From contig CAZSPC010000002.1 in NCBI GenBank assembly GCA_964608745.1, forward strand, positions 1 through 54,454: a stretch of DNA of 54,454 bases. The letters are read 5' to 3'. The stretch comes from an uncultured Candidatus Saccharibacteria bacterium (GTDB lineage Bacteria > Patescibacteriota > Minisyncoccia > Phycocordibacterales > UBA12079). Made by a program: the position numbers and the translations under genes. Below the pieces are notes generated by a model that was not told the origin of the DNA, searched no databases, and saw only the letters and a list, made by a program, of their open reading frames with translations. Below are positions 12,565 through 41,427 of this stretch, one piece after another; the stretch's first letter is position 1, and every line of letters starts with the position of its first letter.

Positions 12565-13299
12565 ATGAAATCGGAAAATAAGAAGCATATTCACCCAATA
12601 ATTCGTGTAATTCAAGACATTACAGCTGTTTTTGTTGATATGGGTTTTGAGGTGGCTAGTGGGCCGGAAATTGAAGATGGATACCATAACTTTGATGCTC
12701 TGAATGTTCCCAAAGACCATCCAGCAAGAGATATGCAAGATACTTTTTGGCTTGAGCCAAGAAATTTAGATAAATTACTAAGAACACATACATCAGGAGT
12801 CCAAGTTCGTTATATGGAAGAAAATAAACCACCATTAGCGATTCTTGTGCCAGGAAAGGTTTTTAGAAACGAAGCCACTGACGCAACACATGATGCCCAG
12901 TTTCATCAATGCGAAGGGCTTGTGGTTGGTGAAAATATAACATTAGCTAATTTAAAAGGTACACTAGAAAACTTTTTGAAAAAACTTTTTGGTGATGATG
13001 TTGAAATTAGACTTCGTCCGGGGTATTTTCCGTTTGTTGAGCCGGGGGTTGAAATTGATATGGTTTGTTTTAAGTGTAAGGGTGATGGATGTCCTGCTTG
13101 TTCGCATTCTGGTTGGATTGAAATACTTGGTGCTGGTATGGTTCATCCAAATGTATTAAATAATGTTGGCATAGATAGTCGGAAGTATCAAGGTTTTGCT
13201 TTTGGTGTGGGGATTGACCGAATTGCGATGTTGAAATACGGAATTGACGATATAAGATTGTTGTATTCGGGGGATCTACGATTAGTAAACCAATTCTAA
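12565..13299 (+). CDS. pheS: Phenylalanine--tRNA ligase alpha subunit, catalytic core only
   Basis: [30 protein letters not shown], motif 2 [19 protein letters not shown], motif 3 [14 protein letters not shown]. At 244 aa it lacks the usual N-terminal coiled coil. Confidence 0.92.
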
Positions 13300-13446
13300 T
13301 TTTAATAATCCCAAAATTGGTGAATTTCTTTGTCAGCTTCGTCGAAAAAACATTCACCGTACTAGGTGTACGGCTCATATTTTTTCTTCTCGCTTCCACG
13401 AACTTCACTCAATTTTAAAACTATTAAGTACTTGTTGGTAAAAACT

Positions 13447-13758
13447 ATGAAAAAATATCAAGAACAAATTGATAACTGGTTTAAAGAACAAAATTGGGAT
13501 TACTGGAATCCTTTGGCTATTGTAACGAGATTATTTGAGGAGTGTGGGGAATTTGCACGGGAGGTTAATCATGTCTATGGTCCAAAACAGAAAAAATTAG
13601 ACGAAAAGAAGAAAGATATTGAAGATGAATTAGGAGATATTGTTTATACATTAATTTGTTTTGCAAATTCACATGGAATAGATTTAGATGAAGCAATACA
13701 AAAAAGTATCGATAAGGTAACTAAAAGAGATAAAGATAGATTTACTAAAACTAGATAA
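13447..13758 (+). CDS. MazG-like nucleotide pyrophosphohydrolase domain protein
   Basis: EECGEFAREV...EDELGDIVYTLICFAN matches the EEXXE...D all-alpha NTP-PPase pattern. Confidence 0.7.
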   Translation: MKKYQEQIDNWFKEQNWDYWNPLAIVTRLFEECGEFAREVNHVYGPKQKKLDEKKKDIEDELGDIVYTLICFANSHGIDLDEAIQKSIDKVTKRDKDRFTKTR

Positions 13759-13849: not shown

Positions 13850-14416
13850 ATGAAAAAAGTTTACATAATTCATGGTTGGGAAGGAACATCAAAATTTTCT
13901 TGGGTTCCACATATAGCTAATTCTTTAAGGGAATTAGGTTTTGAGGTTGTTGCTCCTGATATGCCAAACACTGATGCTCCTGATATGAAAGAATGGGTTA
14001 ATTATTTAAAAGATATTGCACAAGAAATAGATGAGGAAACAGTTTTTATAGGACATAGTATTGGCTGTCAAACAATAATGAGATTTTTAGAGAAGCAAGA
14101 TAAAAAAGTGAATGGTTGTATTTTTGTAGCTGGTTGGTTTGATTTAATTAATCTATCAGATGAAGAATCTAAGGAAATCGCAAAACCTTGGTTAGAAACT
14201 CCAATTGACTTCAAAAAAATAAAGCAAAATACAGGCAAGATTACTACAATTTTGGGTGATAAGGATCAGTGGGTGCCATATGAAAAAACCAAAGAAAAAT
14301 TCGAAAATAATTTAGGTGCGAAAATTATAACAATGGAAGGACGAGGTCATTTAGATGGAGAAAATGAAAAACTTCCTGAATTAGTAGAAATTTTCAAAAA
14401 AGAATTTATTAACTAA
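13850..14416 (+). CDS. Alpha/beta serine hydrolase (YdeN/RBBP9-like)
   Basis: VYIIHGW start, nucleophile elbow GHSIGC, C-terminal GRGHL. Confidence 0.75.
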   Translation: MKKVYIIHGWEGTSKFSWVPHIANSLRELGFEVVAPDMPNTDAPDMKEWVNYLKDIAQEIDEETVFIGHSIGCQTIMRFLEKQDKKVNGCIFVAGWFDLINLSDEESKEIAKPWLETPIDFKKIKQNTGKITTILGDKDQWVPYEKTKEKFENNLGAKIITMEGRGHLDGENEKLPELVEIFKKEFIN

Positions 14417-14449: not shown

Positions 14450-17161
14450 ATGTTAATTTCATACAACTGGATAAATAAATATTTTGACAACAGATTGCCA
14501 AAACCAAATGAATTGGTGGAGATTTTGAACTCCCACGCTTTTGAGGTTGAGAGTGTTGAGGATTTATCTCAAAGATTTAATAAAATTGTTGTTGGGCAGG
14601 TTGTGGGTGTGGAGAAACACCCTGACGCGGATCGTTTAAGTGTAGCAAGGGTAAATACAGGAAGTGAAGAATTGCAAATTGTTTGTGGTGCCTCTAACCT
14701 AGAAAAAAATCAAAAAGTTCCGGTTGCTACTGTGGGAGCTATTTTACCTGATGGGTTTGAAATTGGAAAAGCAAAATTACGAGGCGTTGAATCAAACGGA
14801 ATGATTTGTTCTGAGAGTGAACTTGGTTTAGCAAAAGAATCAGAAGGAATTATGGTGTTAGATGAAAGTGCAAAGATTGGACAAAATTTTGCTGAATACT
14901 TAAATTTAAACGACACAATTTTAGATATTGATGTTTTGCCAAACAGAGCCCACGACTGCCTTTCACATAGAGGAATGGCAAAAGAAATTGCCATCTTAAC
15001 CGACCTAGAGCCAGAAATCAAAAAAAGTGGGGTACCTGGTACCCCACAAACCGACATCAAATCATCTATTGTTGTGAAAATTGAAGATGAAAAATTATGC
15101 CGAAGATATATTGCTGTTGAAGTTCAAAATATTGAGGTAAAAGAATCTCCTGAGTGGCTTAAAAAAAGTTTAGAGTCAATTGGTCAAAGATCAATCAATA
15201 ATATTGTTGATGCAACTAATTATGTGATGTTTGACCTCGGTCAACCCCTACACGCCTTTGACAGAGAAAAATTATCGGGCGGAAAGATTATAGTTCGAAA
15301 TGCAAAATCAGGTGAAAAAATTACAACCTTAGACAAACAAGAAGTAGAATTAGATGAATCTGTTTTGATCATTGCAGATGAACAGTCTCCTTTGGCAATT
15401 GCTGGAGTAAAAGGTGGAGATAAAGCAGAGGTGGATAAAAATACAAAAAATATCGTATTAGAATCTGCAAACTTTGACCCAACTAGTATTAGAAAAACTT
15501 CTCGTCGATTAAATATTCCAACAGATTCTGCTAAAAGGTTTGAAAACGAAATTAGCACCGAATTGGCTGGTGTTGCAATGGATGAGCTAGTTGCTTTGAT
15601 AAAAGAAGTTGCTGGTACAAATGATACTCAATTTGGTGTTAAAAATGATGTTTATCCAAGAAAGCCTAATTTATACAAAGTGGGAGTTTCTACCGACGAA
15701 GTGAACAAATTGCTCGGTACAAATATTTCTGATAAACAGGTTGAAGAAATTTTAGATAGGTTTGGGTTTGAATATGAAAAAATTAACCCACTTGAAAAAG
15801 TTTTGGAATTAGCACCAACATTTGTGGGTGTGCCGTATAAATTAGGAGCAAGTGTTACCTATGACGCACCGAATAAATTTGATTGCTCATCCTTTGCTTC
15901 ATACCTATTTGCACAAGCGGGAGTTTCAATTCCTAGAATTTCAATCGACCAATACCTACTTGGAGACCGGGTCTCCAAGTCTGGGTTGCGAGCGGGGGAT
16001 TTAATTTTTGCTAATACGGGCGAAGGAAAAATTCATTATGAATCGGTAGAATTTTTGTCAGGCACGAAAATAGAAGAGGGGGTTGATCACCTAGGGGTTT
16101 ATTTGGGTGACGGTCAGGTGATTCATTCTTCTCGTTATAACAAAAATGGAGTTGGGATAGGAAAAATTGAAGATTTCGATCAGTTTAAAAACGTTGTTGG
16201 ATACAGGAGGGTGGTTGAAAAAGGCGCTAAACGGTATATGGTTACAATTCCATATGAGAGGATGGATCTGCGAATTAAAGAAGACTTAATTGAAGAAATT
16301 GGACGGGTTTATGGTTATAAAAATATTGAGTCAATTTTGCCGGAAAGTATTGGAGAGCCAAAAATCAATAAAGTTTTTTATTACTCCAACAAGGTTAGAA
16401 AGATTTTAGGAGAAATTGGTTTTAGTGAAGTGCAAACATATACTTTTGGTGATAGGGGTGAGGTTGAAGTACAAAAGCCTCTCGCGAGTAATTTAGGTTG
16501 TCTAAGGACTAATCTGACCGATGGAATTCAGAAAAGTTTAGATTTAAATCTCAAAAATGCACTGTTATTAGGACTAGATGAAATAAAGATTTTTGAAATT
16601 GGAAAAGTTTTTCCATCTATTGATAGTGAATATACTTCTTTTGCGATTGGTATTCGCTCAGCCAAAAAAATGAAGGCGTCCGTCATTGCGAAGGCGAAGC
16701 GTGTGGCAATCCAGGAAGTTATAAGTATCTTAAATAGTGAATTAAACATTGATTTGAAAGCGGAGGAAAAAGATGGAATTTTTGAAATAAACTTTGACGA
16801 GTTGGTTGAAAAACTTCCCGAATTAGAAAATTATGATGGTGTATTGCCAAAAGAGATCGGTGAAGCCATAAAATATCAAAAAATTTCACCCTATCCATTT
16901 ATGTTAAGAGATATTGCTGTTTGGTTGCCGAATGATAAGAATTCAGATGATTTATTGGCAATAATTACAGAAAATGCGGGAGATTTATTGGTAAATACAA
17001 AATTATTTGATACTTACGCACCCGAGGGCGAAAACAGGACATCTTATGCTTTTAATCTTGTTTTTCAATCAGGTGAAAAAACTTTAACCGATGATGAAGT
17101 AAATAAAATTATGGATAAAATTACGAAAGAGGTTGAGAAAAATGGTTGGGAAGTGAGGTAA
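14450..17161 (+). CDS. pheT: Phenylalanine--tRNA ligase beta subunit carrying an inserted NlpC/P60 domain
   Basis: It has the tRNA-binding domain (VVGQVVGVEKHPDADRL), B3/4, B5 (VSTDEVNKLLG...ILDRFGFE / VTIPYERMDLRIKEDLIEEIGRVYGY) and a C-terminal FDX-ACB-like end. Residues about 446-595 match the NlpC/P60 pattern. Confidence 0.95.
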   Translation: MLISYNWINKYFDNRLPKPNELVEILNSHAFEVESVEDLSQRFNKIVVGQVVGVEKHPDADRLSVARVNTGSEELQIVCGASNLEKNQKVPVATVGAILPDGFEIGKAKLRGVESNGMICSESELGLAKESEGIMVLDESAKIGQNFAEYLNLNDTILDIDVLPNRAHDCLSHRGMAKEIAILTDLEPEIKKSGVPGTPQTDIKSSIVVKIEDEKLCRRYIAVEVQNIEVKESPEWLKKSLESIGQRSINNIVDATNYVMFDLGQPLHAFDREKLSGGKIIVRNAKSGEKITTLDKQEVELDESVLIIADEQSPLAIAGVKGGDKAEVDKNTKNIVLESANFDPTSIRKTSRRLNIPTDSAKRFENEISTELAGVAMDELVALIKEVAGTNDTQFGVKNDVYPRKPNLYKVGVSTDEVNKLLGTNISDKQVEEILDRFGFEYEKINPLEKVLELAPTFVGVPYKLGASVTYDAPNKFDCSSFASYLFAQAGVSIPRISIDQYLLGDRVSKSGLRAGDLIFANTGEGKIHYESVEFLSGTKIEEGVDHLGVYLGDGQVIHSSRYNKNGVGIGKIEDFDQFKNVVGYRRVVEKGAKRYMVTIPYERMDLRIKEDLIEEIGRVYGYKNIESILPESIGEPKINKVFYYSNKVRKILGEIGFSEVQTYTFGDRGEVEVQKPLASNLGCLRTNLTDGIQKSLDLNLKNALLLGLDEIKIFEIGKVFPSIDSEYTSFAIGIRSAKKMKASVIAKAKRVAIQEVISILNSELNIDLKAEEKDGIFEINFDELVEKLPELENYDGVLPKEIGEAIKYQKISPYPFMLRDIAVWLPNDKNSDDLLAIITENAGDLLVNTKLFDTYAPEGENRTSYAFNLVFQSGEKTLTDDEVNKIMDKITKEVEKNGWEVR

Positions 17162-17481: not shown

Positions 17482-18153
17482 CTAATTAGAGGTGCTTGTT
17501 GTTGCTTGCTCCGTTAGAGGTAAACTGCTGGAAGCAGTTGTAAGCTCTAATGGAGGTGTTGTAGTTGCGACTGATGGAGTGGCCGTTGGTGTTTCCATAG
17601 CTTCATCAATGTGAACGTTTACAACAAAAACAATTTTATTATTTTCTATATCATAAATTTCCATTGCCGGCATATCTTCTGTCCATTCAATTTCATTTGC
17701 TATCATATATTCTTCTAGAACTCTGTACATCTTTACCGGAGCCAACATAAATGACAACATATTTTTGTATGGGAATTCTGCTACGATACTTTTTGTTTTG
17801 GGTAGCGTCTTTACCATATAATCTTCTGTTGTTGTACTCAATTTTTGAATATCAGCGTCATTGATAATACTTCCCACCTCACTTCTTAATTTGTCTTTAT
17901 CGACTATTGCTGGATTATCTAGGTAAATACCAAACCCAACTTGATCAGTAATTTCTTCTGAAAGTAGAGCTTGATAAACTTCATCCATTGTAGATGCAAC
18001 TTGTGTGTAAGGTCCGACATATTCTTTATAGGCAACAGCGTAAGGACCCATCTCTTGTTCTGTTACTTCATAATTACTCAAACATCCCATATATCCAGCG
18101 ACCAAAAGGAATAGAATAATTAAAACAACAATTGTGTAAATTAATTTTCGCAT
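17482..18153 (-). CDS. Membrane-anchored GyrI-like (effector-binding fold) protein with a Thr/Ser/Pro-rich tail
   Basis: N-terminal TM helix, then two GyrI-like half repeats (GPYAVAYKEYVGPY...GIYLDNP...RSEVG; ...AMEIYD). Confidence 0.6.
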   Translation of the reverse strand: MRKLIYTIVVLIILFLLVAGYMGCLSNYEVTEQEMGPYAVAYKEYVGPYTQVASTMDEVYQALLSEEITDQVGFGIYLDNPAIVDKDKLRSEVGSIINDADIQKLSTTTEDYMVKTLPKTKSIVAEFPYKNMLSFMLAPVKMYRVLEEYMIANEIEWTEDMPAMEIYDIENNKIVFVVNVHIDEAMETPTATPSVATTTPPLELTTASSSLPLTEQATTSTSN

Positions 18154-18215: not shown

Positions 18216-19184
18216 ATGAAAAGAGATGTTTTAATCTATCAAGCAAAAAATGGTGAAATAAAATTTCGGGGAGATTTTAGCGGTGATACTATTTGGGCAA
18301 CGCAAAAACAAATTGCGGAGGTTTTTGGTGTGAATTCTCAAGCTATTACAAAACATATTGGAAATATTTATAAAGATAAAGAGCTAGTAGAAAAACAGAC
18401 TTGTTCCAAAATGGAACAAGTTCAAATAGAGGGCAAGAATAAGGTTAAAAGAAGACTAAAATTTTATAATCTAGATATGATAATCTCGATTGGTTATAGA
18501 ATTAATTCCAAAAAAGCTACAGAATTTCGTATCTGGGCAACCAAAACCCTAAAACAACATATTACCAAGGGCTACACAATAAATAAAAAAATGATTGGTA
18601 AAAATTATGATGACTTTATGAAAGCGGTTGAAAGTGTACAAAAGTTGTTACCAAAAAACGACTTGATATCAAACGAAAATGTTTTAGAGCTTGTGAAAAC
18701 TTTTGCGAGTACCTGGTTTTCTCTTGAAGTCTATGATGAGGGTAATTTTCCCAAAAAAGGTTTTACTAAGAAAAAAGTAAAAGTGCATGCAGATGAATTG
18801 TATGAGGTGGTTTCTAGCTTTAAAAAAGAGTTAATAAGGAGAAAACAAGCGACTGACTTGTTCGCACAAGAAAAGAAAAACAAAAGCCTCGAAGGAATTT
18901 TGGGTAATGTTTTTCAGGCGGTTTTCGGTTCAGAAGTTTACCCAACAATTGAAGAAAAGTCGGCACATTTATTATACTTTGTAGTAAAAAATCATCCATT
19001 CAACGATGGCAACAAAAGAACAGGAGCTTTTTGTTTTGTATGGTTTTTAAGAAAAGCAGGCTTGCGATTTGATGGAAAAATTACACCAGAGGCTTTGACT
19101 ACGCTAACTTTGTTGATAACAGAATCAAAGCCAAAAGACAAAGACCGTATGATCGGGCTGGTTTTGTTGTTGCTAAAAAAATAA
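18216..19184 (+). CDS. RhuM-like N-terminal domain fused to a Fic/Doc domain
   Basis: The N-terminus has YNLDMIISIGYRINSKKATEFRIWATK. The C-terminus has the Fic/Doc motif HPFNDGNKRTG. Confidence 0.8.
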   Translation: MKRDVLIYQAKNGEIKFRGDFSGDTIWATQKQIAEVFGVNSQAITKHIGNIYKDKELVEKQTCSKMEQVQIEGKNKVKRRLKFYNLDMIISIGYRINSKKATEFRIWATKTLKQHITKGYTINKKMIGKNYDDFMKAVESVQKLLPKNDLISNENVLELVKTFASTWFSLEVYDEGNFPKKGFTKKKVKVHADELYEVVSSFKKELIRRKQATDLFAQEKKNKSLEGILGNVFQAVFGSEVYPTIEEKSAHLLYFVVKNHPFNDGNKRTGAFCFVWFLRKAGLRFDGKITPEALTTLTLLITESKPKDKDRMIGLVLLLLKK

Positions 19185-19190
19185 TTTTCT

Positions 19191-19739
19191 ATGAAAAAGA
19201 TATTGAATGTACCATATTATTCTCAACACAGAGATGTGAAAGACGGATATTGGAGGTTGAGAGCTTGTGGTATTTTGTGCCTAAAATCCATTTTAGATTT
19301 CCACTTGGACCCCGGGGTTCCAAGTGGTGTTGATGAATTTGTAGAGATGGCAGATAGGAAAGGTGCATATGGTAAAAGCGGATGGATTCATCAAGGTTTG
19401 ATTGATATCGCGGGCGAGTTTGGTTTGGAAATGGAAAGAAAAGAATACAAGTCAGATGATCTGAAAAAATCTGAAATGCTTTTGGAAAACGGAATCAATA
19501 GGATTGTTGATTCTATAAAAAATAATAAACCAGTTCTAATCTCTGCAATAAAAAGATGGAAAGAAAAAGATAAATTTCACATGATTGTCTTAACTGGTTT
19601 TGAGAATGACGAAAAAGGAAATTTAAAAGGTTTTTACTATAACGATACCGATTATGATGACGAAGAGGGAGGGGGTTTATTTGTTGATATAAAGACATTC
19701 AAAAAATATTGGAGAAGATTAGCTATTTTTGTGAAATAA
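19191..19739 (+). CDS. C39-like papain-fold cysteine peptidase domain protein
   Basis: VPYYSQ...ACGILCLKSIL (Cys) and FHMIVLTGFE (His), as in the Peptidase_C39_2 family. It begins 7 nt after the Fic gene. Confidence 0.65.
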   Translation: MKKILNVPYYSQHRDVKDGYWRLRACGILCLKSILDFHLDPGVPSGVDEFVEMADRKGAYGKSGWIHQGLIDIAGEFGLEMERKEYKSDDLKKSEMLLENGINRIVDSIKNNKPVLISAIKRWKEKDKFHMIVLTGFENDEKGNLKGFYYNDTDYDDEEGGGLFVDIKTFKKYWRRLAIFVK

Positions 19740-20473: not shown

Positions 20474-22588
<2,115 letters not shown>

Positions 22589-40881: not shown

Positions 40882-41427
40882 TGTAACCTCCTTTTAGTTG
40901 AATTAAATAACTCTGAGTTACAAAACTATTCATACTGCTTTAAATTTTTCTTCTGTTTTTTAAGGAAAAATTTAAAGTGTCACGAGAATTTTCTGAAGTT
41001 TTTAGAAACAAAGATGAAAATTTCAGGAAATTCGTAGTAGAAGAGAGTTTTGTAATTTAGAGTAAATAAAGAACAAAAAACCCCATCTCTTCGAGGGTTT
41101 ACAAAAAATATGTACTACTCTCATTCCTCGAAGAGTTATTAATACTATCTATAATTAAGCGACCTGGCTTATTCTCTTAATGAGACATTACAGTTGCGGG
41201 TCAGCCGAGGATTCTCACCTCGTTCGTTAACTATAAATATTTATGGATTTTTACTGAGTTTATTATAGCATAGAAAATAAATAAAACCCCAATACTCAGC
41301 CGTGTTGGGATTTAACTTATTCTAGCTCCGCCTGGTAGATGAAGTTAGAATCTATGTTATGTTGAATAGAGAATAAGAAAACCCGCTCAACGAGAACGGG
41401 AGTTCTTGTTGGCGGAAGTTGTAATAT

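Follow-up and report, generated by a model that had tools for sequence, protein, structure and literature searches.

A cysteine hydrolase domain of the NlpC/P60 type nested in the B5 domain of the phenylalanyl-tRNA synthetase β subunit of Parcubacteria-type bacteria

The stretch of DNA analyzed here, which we call the window, is positions 1 to 54,454, in nucleotides (nt), of a contig (CAZSPC010000002.1, assembly GCA_964608745.1) deposited as from an uncultured Candidatus Saccharibacteria bacterium. The subject of this report is its pheT gene, which codes for the β subunit of phenylalanyl-tRNA synthetase (PheRS) and carries, between the two halves of its B5 domain, a nested domain of the NlpC/P60 type. 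The gene is a single unbroken open reading frame (ORF) on the plus strand that codes for a PheT of 903 amino acids (aa). The features of pheT that bear on the nested domain are listed below with the evidence for each.

14450..17161, plus strand: pheT, PheRS β subunit, 903 aa, with the nested domain (ORF, TIGR00472, order of Pfam domains, AlphaFold2 (AF2) model)
15674..15784, plus strand: N-terminal half of B5, aa 409-445, a strand, two helices, and strand β2 (split Pfam B5 match, PheRS alignment, secondary structure of the model)
15785..16234, plus strand: nested NlpC/P60 (C40) cysteine hydrolase domain, aa 446-595 (PF00877, 7CFL, Foldseek, and the predicted local distance difference test score (pLDDT))
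15884..15886, plus strand: codon of the predicted catalytic Cys479, motif F-D-C-S-S (alignment to 7CFL; 81/81 genome orthologs; 218/223 in a less biased set)
16028..16081, plus strand: family-specific extra β-hairpin, aa 527-544, KIHYESVEFLSGTKIEEG, placed after the GDLIF strand and ahead of the catalytic His
16088..16090, plus strand: codon of the predicted catalytic His547, motif V-D-H-L-G-V-Y (alignment to 7CFL, ortholog counts)
16124..16126, plus strand: codon of the third triad residue, His559, motif V-I-H-S-S (alignment to 7CFL, ortholog counts)
16235..16324, plus strand: C-terminal half of B5, aa 596-625, strand β3 and a helix (Pfam, ortholog alignment, PheRS structures)

The protein scores 669 bits against TIGR00472 (pheT_bact), the cut-off of which is 402.65, and it is therefore PheT by the equivalog model. 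Pfam places tRNA_bind (B2) at aa 46-145, B3_4 at 217-389, CLM at 626-724, and FDX-ACB (B8) at 813-903, and from Pfam and the model together the domain order B1-(B2)-B3/4-B5-B6/7-B8 is present. B5 itself is matched in two pieces, the C-terminal half (aa 589-623) corresponding to profile positions 33-67, and between the two pieces lies an NLPC_P60 match at aa 460-572 (E = 8e-18, 64.8 bits). When 15785-16237 was translated alone the match to NLPC_P60 (PF00877) was E = 5.3e-20 and 71.8 bits, the gathering cut-off of this family being 23 bits. The first-pass annotation, made from the letters of the DNA and a list of ORFs, had claimed that an NlpC/P60 domain is inserted between the halves of B5 at 15785-16237 and had proposed a Pfam search for both domains. 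That search gave the significant NLPC_P60 match and the split B5 just described, the claim is further upheld by the structural match to 7CFL given below, and all the amino acid strings quoted in that annotation are found in the PheT translation; the interval itself was changed only at its end, which we place 3 nt earlier, at 16234. The boundaries come from the alignment to solved PheRS β chains, which covers PheT aa 1-441 and restarts at 596, and from an insertion-less relative, P0013, which has just a short turn at this position. On these grounds the insert is aa 446-595 (nt 15785-16234), a total of 150 residues, and it takes the place of the tip of the β2-β3 hairpin in the winged-helix domain B5. 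The G+C content is 0.40-0.42 across the insert (15700-16150) and about 0.34-0.35 in the flanking parts of pheT, for which the Gly/Ala/Pro-rich catalytic motifs may be the simple cause.

The AF2 model of full-length PheT has a pLDDT of 85.5 overall and of at least 90 throughout the insert. It matches bacterial PheRS β chains with E about 1e-65, and none of the solved β chains that it matches has anything at the position of the insert. In the model of aa 401-637 (69 sequences; pLDDT 94.5, predicted template modelling score 0.89) the halves of B5 meet around a compact α+β domain. In the C-terminal half of B5 residues R604, D606, D612, E615, and E616 are conserved, and among 81 orthologs D606 and E616 are found in all 81, E615 in 77, and D612 in 73; by the UniProt annotation of PheT these four acidic residues are putative ligands of a Mg2+ that is shared with the α subunit. 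As judged from sequence and model, B5 still folds around the insert and the remainder of PheT resembles a working PheRS β subunit.

Among solved structures the insert is closest in sequence to the catalytic domain of Acd24020, an autolysin of C. difficile (7CFL, E = 7e-18), and in this alignment Cys479, His547, and His559 line up with the catalytic residues of 7CFL. The earlier suggestion that the catalytic Cys and His are retained thus agrees with the alignment. The His-12-His spacing in the insert equals that in BcYkfC (PMC2954226). When the nested domain was compared with known structures by Foldseek it matched 7CFL with a template modelling score of 0.87-0.92, a root-mean-square deviation (rmsd) of 1.7 Å, and 35% identity. 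At E ≤ 0.001 the PDB gave 62 matches, of which the 50 listed are all NlpC/P60 domains, the top ones being the peptidoglycan DL-endopeptidases MepS/Spr, CwlO, LytE, RipB, SagA, YkfC, and DPP VI; the rmsd to YkfC (3H41) was 2.6 Å. Profile and fold searches with the insert gave only families of the NlpC/P60 type and no homology to known editing domains, and weak matches to LRAT were under the Pfam gathering score. A Pfam search of PheT showed no Hint/intein, homing endonuclease, or transposase signature, nor did it show the wall-binding domains SH3b, LysM, or SPOR, unlike the secreted P60 matches. It is close to certain from sequence and model that the insert is a genuine canonical papain-fold cysteine hydrolase domain of the P60 type (MEROPS C40), and from its residues it is probably catalytic, a predicted cytoplasmic thiol hydrolase.

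The nested domain shares its fold, the Cys-His-His triad, and the motifs PY..G, FDCS, PR.S.DQ, GDL.F, H.G.Y.G, and.H.S with the NlpC/P60 DL-endopeptidases, such as Acd24020, E. coli MepS/Spr, and B. subtilis CwlO and LytE. These enzymes, however, work on the wall after secretion or as lipid-anchored proteins, whereas the nested domain lies inside a cytoplasmic synthetase and has no targeting domain. It also differs from them by a conserved hairpin of 18 residues (aa 527-544), which shows up as a gap when the insert is aligned to 7CFL and 4XCM, is modelled as strands, and has two residues, G538 and G544, that are nearly invariant in 81 orthologs. The second deviation from ordinary P60 domains is the addition of four residues ahead of the DAP motif.

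The distribution of the module was examined by a scan of one genome per GTDB species, the loci being found by motif patterns that contain Cys or His, and it is encoded in 135 species-representative genomes. The best 80 of these 135 are all metagenome-assembled genomes of the Parcubacteria/Paceibacteria type and carry the names Campbell-, Yonath-, Lloyd-, Taylor-, Nomura-, Zambryski-, and Vogelbacteria and Paceibacterota; the closest among these 80 are Campbellbacteria with 65-67% identity, including the complete genome CP011215. Taxon names are given as in the database records, and many third-party annotation records say 'Saccharibacteria', which is probably a generic label. A PheT-sized frame surrounds the module in 80/80 loci and pheS is directly upstream of the module-bearing pheT in 75 of them. 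When 1.84 billion representatives were searched with a profile, 192 clusters (50% identity) had E < 1e-30; most of these are proteins 770-830 aa long in which the module spans about 295-610. PF00877 was found in 119 of the 120 best full-length homologs. The survey of PheT orthologs for the insertion, which had been proposed together with the original claim, therefore shows the same architecture at the same site in hundreds of independent assemblies. Public pipelines do predict these proteins but are not consistent in naming them: 'phenylalanine--tRNA ligase beta subunit-related protein', 'hypothetical', and 'C40 family peptidase' are all in use, and the present findings expose a systematic misannotation of essential PheT proteins.

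Since the genome loci had been selected with patterns containing Cys or His, the triad was recounted on profile- and word-based sets that comprise 223 embedded modules. Of these, 199 have the triad as C-H-H, 14 as C-H-Tyr/Phe, 4 as C-H-polar, and 1 as C-H-Gly, so that the Cys-His dyad is kept in 218 (98%) and lost in 5, and the full set of P60 active-site motifs is likewise retained over deep divergence. Proteins in which the domain is kept and the catalytic Cys or His is lost are P0212, P0155, P0184, P0138, P0174, and P0263, the last by an internal deletion that removed the half bearing the Cys. The mean pairwise identity of the insert is 0.47, compared to 0.51 for B3/4, 0.48 for B8, and 0.36 for CLM, and by this measure the insert is as constrained as the essential domains of PheT. 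The insert and the remainder of PheT have diverged in parallel (Mantel r = 0.70, 0/999 permutations). Its conservation and this correlation point to a single ancient insertion followed by purifying selection, and it is close to certain from these comparisons that one old insertion, in an ancestor shared by a large clade of Parcubacteria/Paceibacteria, has been passed on vertically ever since. An intein or other mobile insertion does not agree with the single insertion site, the lack of Hint and homing domains in PheT, and a divergence that is correlated with that of the host protein. A protein of a different build from outside the window, P0112 (1183 aa), looks secreted and has about ten tandem NlpC/P60 repeats. 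In most of them the catalytic Cys is replaced by Ser, Gly, or Ile, and only one keeps FDCSS; going by these residues, most of the P60 domains in this array are inactivated.

The module has a conserved partner gene. Of the 72 loci whose flanking sequence was long enough, 52 have a homolog of Peptidase_C39_2 encoded on the strand of the insertion-bearing pheT and downstream of it, and 39 of these 52 genes are within 200 nt of pheT, often overlapping its stop codon. The ancestral gene order is pheS - pheT::NlpC - C39_2 - gyrB, and the window retains this order with genes that were inserted later. The genes around pheT in the window are as follows.

12565..13299, plus strand: pheS, PheRS α subunit, 244 aa, catalytic core only (PF01409, E = 2e-101; TIGR00468 from profile position 70 onward)
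13366-13758: MazG, inserted between pheS and pheT
13850-14416: Ser_hydrolase (α/β hydrolase), inserted between pheS and pheT
17482-18153, minus strand: GyrI-like, inserted between pheT and C39_2
18216-19184: RhuM/Fic-domain protein, inserted between pheT and C39_2
19191..19739, plus strand: Peptidase_C39_2-like cysteine peptidase, 182 aa, without a leader (PF13529, E = 2.4e-8)
20489..22588, plus strand: gyrB, the downstream anchor of the conserved order (Pfam; gyrB cluster downstream in 52 loci)

The C39-like protein begins directly with its catalytic domain, where Q12, C26, and H130 never vary and D152 is shared by at least 90% of the sequences. A search for its homologs gave single-domain Parcubacteria proteins only, and by sequence it had no match in the PDB. 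In P0004, P0051, P0153, and L160 a single fusion protein of about 395 aa combines C39_2 with the module. The gene neighborhood, the translational coupling, and these fusions together indicate that the NlpC module and the C39-like enzyme work together. The idea that they form a defense or toxin module has no support from PADLOC, which gave no match for the module or for the C39 partner. As for the inserted genes, the MazG-type pyrophosphohydrolase and the Ser_hydrolase part pheS from pheT in the window, whereas in most relatives pheS and pheT abut or overlap. The RhuM/Fic protein matches the PADLOC candidate defense family PDC-S23 (E = 1e-112), and the segment 17482-19184 looks like a small defense islet that splits a conserved gene pair.

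The module also occurs outside PheT. There are proteins of 195-240 aa that consist of exactly the N-terminal half of B5, the NlpC/P60 domain, and the C-terminal half of B5. One of these, P0002, which was found on 14 contigs, starts at the stop codon of a gene coding for a 379-aa protein made of the PheS core and FDX-ACB, and it is followed by C39_2 and then by gyrB. This 379-aa single-chain protein scores just under the cut-offs of TIGR00469 and of the NCBI model 'PheS-related mystery ligase SrmL'. A metagenome scan added 13 stand-alone loci and 2 fusions. In 13/13 of these stand-alone loci the single-chain PheRS gene is the immediate neighbor (7 co-directional and 6 divergent), no PheT N-terminal or CLM sequence was found in the locus surroundings, and gyrB is downstream of the module in the two that were examined further, L086 and L144, as it is in L081. 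The single-chain PheRS genes are about 380 codons long (L081 6862-8001; L086 3856-5004; L144 3781-4923, minus strand), more of them are in L087-L089, L128, L136, L138, L141, L147, L148, L154, and L156, and within these loci no separate pheT stands beside them. They have the same architecture, a PheS core with FDX-ACB, as the mitochondrial-type single-chain PheRS (TIGR00469, PDB 3CMQ), but they differ from it in being bacterial, of the Candidate Phyla Radiation (CPR), in scoring below the cut-off, and in having a B5::NlpC remnant of pheT alongside. Because the stand-alone protein occupies the former pheT slot, it is most readily explained as a remnant of pheT. Its triad is intact in 11/11 diverse representatives and the putative Mg2+ ligands are partly kept. 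In neighbor-joining (NJ) trees of about 220 columns the stand-alone forms fall into two groups with different embedded nearest relatives, and the two groups were monophyletic together in 0/60 NJ bootstraps, which is modest evidence from sequence for at least two independent reductions of PheT. In these lineages selection has kept B5::NlpC and has discarded B1, B3/4, and B6/7.

The editing domain of PheT was examined because it bears on what the insert could be doing. In B3/4 the residues that we map to the editing site are H268 and T358, each present in 67/67 sequences, E338, present in 47/67, and a small residue at 360; these residues, and those in B5, are mapped to E. coli and T. thermophilus PheRS by motif register. 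Since these B3/4 residues are intact, the peptidase domain is no stand-in for a decayed editing site, and replacement of a dead editing site was rejected as an explanation on the same ground. The B3/4 motif E-x-A (aa 338-340, 15461-15469) reads S-x-C in 20 of the 67 relatives, while the window has Glu at the first position. The position of E338 is, we assume, that of the E. coli editing residue E334, and because this Glu is replaced in the S-x-C subclade, canonical editing may be altered or lost there.

The other subunit is reduced. The pheS gene is 1.1 kb upstream of pheT, and since the TIGR00468 match of its product begins only at profile position 70, PheS is without the N-terminal coiled coil that helps tRNA binding in other bacteria (PMC3275996). 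The PheS proteins of relatives have a median length of about 253 aa, and the coiled coil is likewise missing in about 75 related loci. The B2 domain, an OB-fold (tRNA_bind; aa 46-145, 14585-14884, plus strand), is kept in the PheT of the window, but among the 120 closest homologs it is found in just one other, P0200 (74% identity), the rest being about 100 aa shorter; loss of B2 from CPR PheT has been noted earlier (PMC5370408). The insertion-less relative P0013 (locus L166) also has a short PheS and no B2, although this is a single case. P0013 is called as a gene of 395 aa (L166 3908-5095) that stops soon after B5 and inside the contig, and it may be a split or truncated pheT.

The C39 partner and the fusions with it, the survival of the module as a stand-alone protein, and the intact B3/4 residues argue that the module has a selected function of its own. 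We infer that its activity is independent of the other domains of PheT and that PheT is mainly its carrier and expression vehicle. The function that we tentatively favor, by analogy, is the hydrolysis of γ-D-glutamyl-type peptides in the cytoplasm together with the C39 partner, which is plausible but falls somewhat short of being probable. In small peptides a γ-D-glutamyl-type amide would be attacked by Cys479, as it is by the YkfC enzymes that recycle muropeptides in the cytoplasm of Bacillus and Chlamydia, a second cut would be made by the C39-like enzyme, and the outcome would be that wall-derived amino acids are recovered by an organism that is probably dependent on scavenging. B5 and the extra hairpin would limit access to the active site and so spare the wall precursors, a role like that of SH3b1 in YkfC. 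This function is favored because the nearest relatives of the domain cut the γ-D-Glu-diamino acid bond, because there are precedents for P60 enzymes in the cytoplasm, and because of the residues that would contact the substrate. The precedents are in Bacillus and in Chlamydia with its reduced genome, where cytoplasmic P60 enzymes degrade imported or recycled wall peptides and leave precursor synthesis untouched (PMC2954226, PMC9928106). In BcYkfC the γ-D-Glu is contacted by Tyr226, Trp228, Asp237, Ser239, and Ser257 (PMC2954226). With positions mapped by motif register, four of these five contacts are present: Y463 is present in 79 of 81 orthologs, D478 is Asp in 57 and Ser in 21, S480 is present in 80, and S498 is Ser or Thr in 72.

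The comparison with YkfC and DPP VI (PMC2954226, PMC9928106) holds for the cytoplasmic location of the P60 domain and, by motif register, may hold for most of the γ-D-Glu contacts. In YkfC an accessory domain shapes the active site, for which the proposed counterpart here is B5 with the extra hairpin. In YkfC, however, Tyr118 of SH3b1 closes the S2 site and Asp256 binds the free amine of L-Ala, and both are absent here. Since the markers of the YkfC subfamily are absent, the likeness to YkfC would be one of mode of action and not of family. Several findings weigh against the peptide hydrolysis that we favor. The position of Trp228 (L465) is variable in the 81 orthologs. PheT has no SH3b domain by Pfam, and it is the B5 halves that flank the insert. 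At the position of Asp256 (Cys+18, aa 497), mapped by the register of the motif P-R-x-S and not by structural superposition, the window has Ile and the 81 orthologs have Ile, Met, or Val. Hydrolysis of wall peptides also leaves unexplained why PheT should be the carrier and why the stand-alone proteins retain B5; the retention of B5 and the adjacency to the PheRS gene could instead reflect a continued physical association with PheRS. Finally, because the 5 of 223 sequences without the dyad keep the domain, there is a non-catalytic contribution in some lineages at least.

The alternative that fares best is that the chemistry of the module is coupled to PheRS, as in proofreading of mischarged or D-aminoacyl-tRNAPhe or of misactivated adenylate, destruction of inhibitors directed at PheRS, or transfer of Phe from Phe-tRNA by way of an acyl-enzyme, but we consider it rather unlikely. 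The first-pass annotation had suggested either an added editing or deacylation function or a moonlighting one at the cell wall, and both suggestions, in the form given there, are weakened by the present findings. It is attractive because the module sits in a synthetase domain in which D606, D612, E615, and E616, with their presumed role in Mg2+ binding, are conserved, and because the stand-alone proteins keep both halves of B5 and adjoin the PheRS gene even where it is inverted; this adjacency can, however, also be explained by inherited synteny of pheS - pheT - C39_2 - gyrB, and the stand-alone proteins have kept just some of the putative Mg2+ ligands. The stand-alone lineages have lost the B3/4 editing domain while the module stays, yet the PheT of the window and of most relatives retains its canonical editing residues and leaves no editing gap to be filled. 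Papain-fold thiol enzymes of this superfamily act on esters, as do the LRAT-type acyltransferases, and the sub-gathering LRAT matches are in line with this, but, whether judged by sequence or by fold, all of the closest relatives are peptidoglycan amidases. In addition, the insert has no bulk basic surface, its median net charge being -3, and there is no obvious role for the C39-like partner. A more specific form, in which B5::NlpC and the C39 partner make up a PheRS-docked thiol enzyme that acts on activated Phe or its mimics, either proofreading after the loss of B3/4 or serving as an acyl-enzyme transferase that passes Phe from Phe-tRNA or Phe-AMP on to a different acceptor, is in our estimate unlikely.

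An equally improbable proposal is that the domain is mainly structural or regulatory, forming a surface for tRNA or a partner, or a ligand sensor, that compensates for the lost PheS coiled coil and B2, with catalysis being secondary. The lack of the tRNA-binding coiled coil in PheS and of B2 in most of the insertion-bearing PheT proteins would fit such a role, as would the retention of the domain in the 5 of 223 modules without the dyad and in the 14 with Tyr or Phe as the third residue. Compensation for the missing coiled coil is weakened, however, by the insert not being basic and by the P0013 locus, which, as one case, has a short PheS and no B2 without having the insertion, and the PheT of the window carries B2 and the insert together. 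Moreover, a structural role does not account for the dyad being kept in 98% of the modules over deep divergence along with the P60 active-site motifs, nor for the persistence of the module with a single-chain PheRS that needs no β subunit.

It is very doubtful that PheT or a fragment of it moonlights outside the cell as a wall hydrolase that cuts the peptidoglycan of its own or of a host cell. Closeness to autolysins and DL-endopeptidases by sequence and fold, and the four of five γ-D-Glu contact residues kept by motif register, speak for it, but the domain is enclosed within a subunit of a cytoplasmic synthetase. In addition, none of PheT, the stand-alone proteins, and the C39 partner has a leader, each beginning with a folded domain, and SH3b, LysM, and SPOR are absent. 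That the feature is an artifact, produced by a chimeric assembly or by the recent arrival of a selfish or mobile element without functional consequence, can practically be dismissed in spite of the slightly higher G+C over the insert, because the frame is continuous, the identical insertion site in hundreds of assemblies from many studies rules out a chimera, and the insert shows host-correlated divergence and strong constraint and has no Hint/intein or transposase signature.

We know of no papain-fold or NlpC/P60 domain among the accessory domains of any aminoacyl-tRNA synthetase (aaRS), and we regard the nested domain as an accessory enzyme in a synthetase subunit of a type not previously seen in aaRS. 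Hydrolases within a synthetase polypeptide are familiar as the editing domains, namely, B3/4 of PheT, CP1 of LeuRS, IleRS, and ValRS, INS of ProRS, and those of AlaRS and ThrRS; CP1 is also nested inside another domain, and aaRS editing domains also have free-standing versions. None of them, however, has the papain or NlpC/P60 fold, their substrate is aminoacyl-tRNA, and B3/4 is still present beside the nested domain. Glutathionylspermidine synthetase/amidase has a cytoplasmic papain-like thiol amidase (CHAP) within the polypeptide of an ATP-dependent ligase, but there both activities are on one metabolite and the amidase is terminal, whereas here the domain is nested and has no known chemical link to the synthetase. 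In full-text literature searches no paper was found on an NlpC/P60 domain in PheT or PheRS, on the C39 partner, or on a bacterial single-chain PheRS with a B5::NlpC companion, and the relevant CPR paper deals with loss of B2 only (PMC5370408). Extra domains in aaRS often mark new biology, and a clade-wide, partnered domain that is predicted to be catalytically intact and has outlived its carrier subunit is a well-defined and experimentally tractable case of this in the core machinery of the ultra-small and poorly understood Parcubacteria. The analysis also brings to light an apparently undescribed bacterial single-chain PheRS of the mitochondrial type and a natural series of PheRS reduction. 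If a PheRS-docked thiol enzyme were true, it would be a new class of aaRS-associated catalysis.

Elsewhere in the window there is an AdoCbl (cobalamin) riboswitch at 41107-41252 on the minus strand, with a score of 62 bits against an Rfam gathering score of 50.

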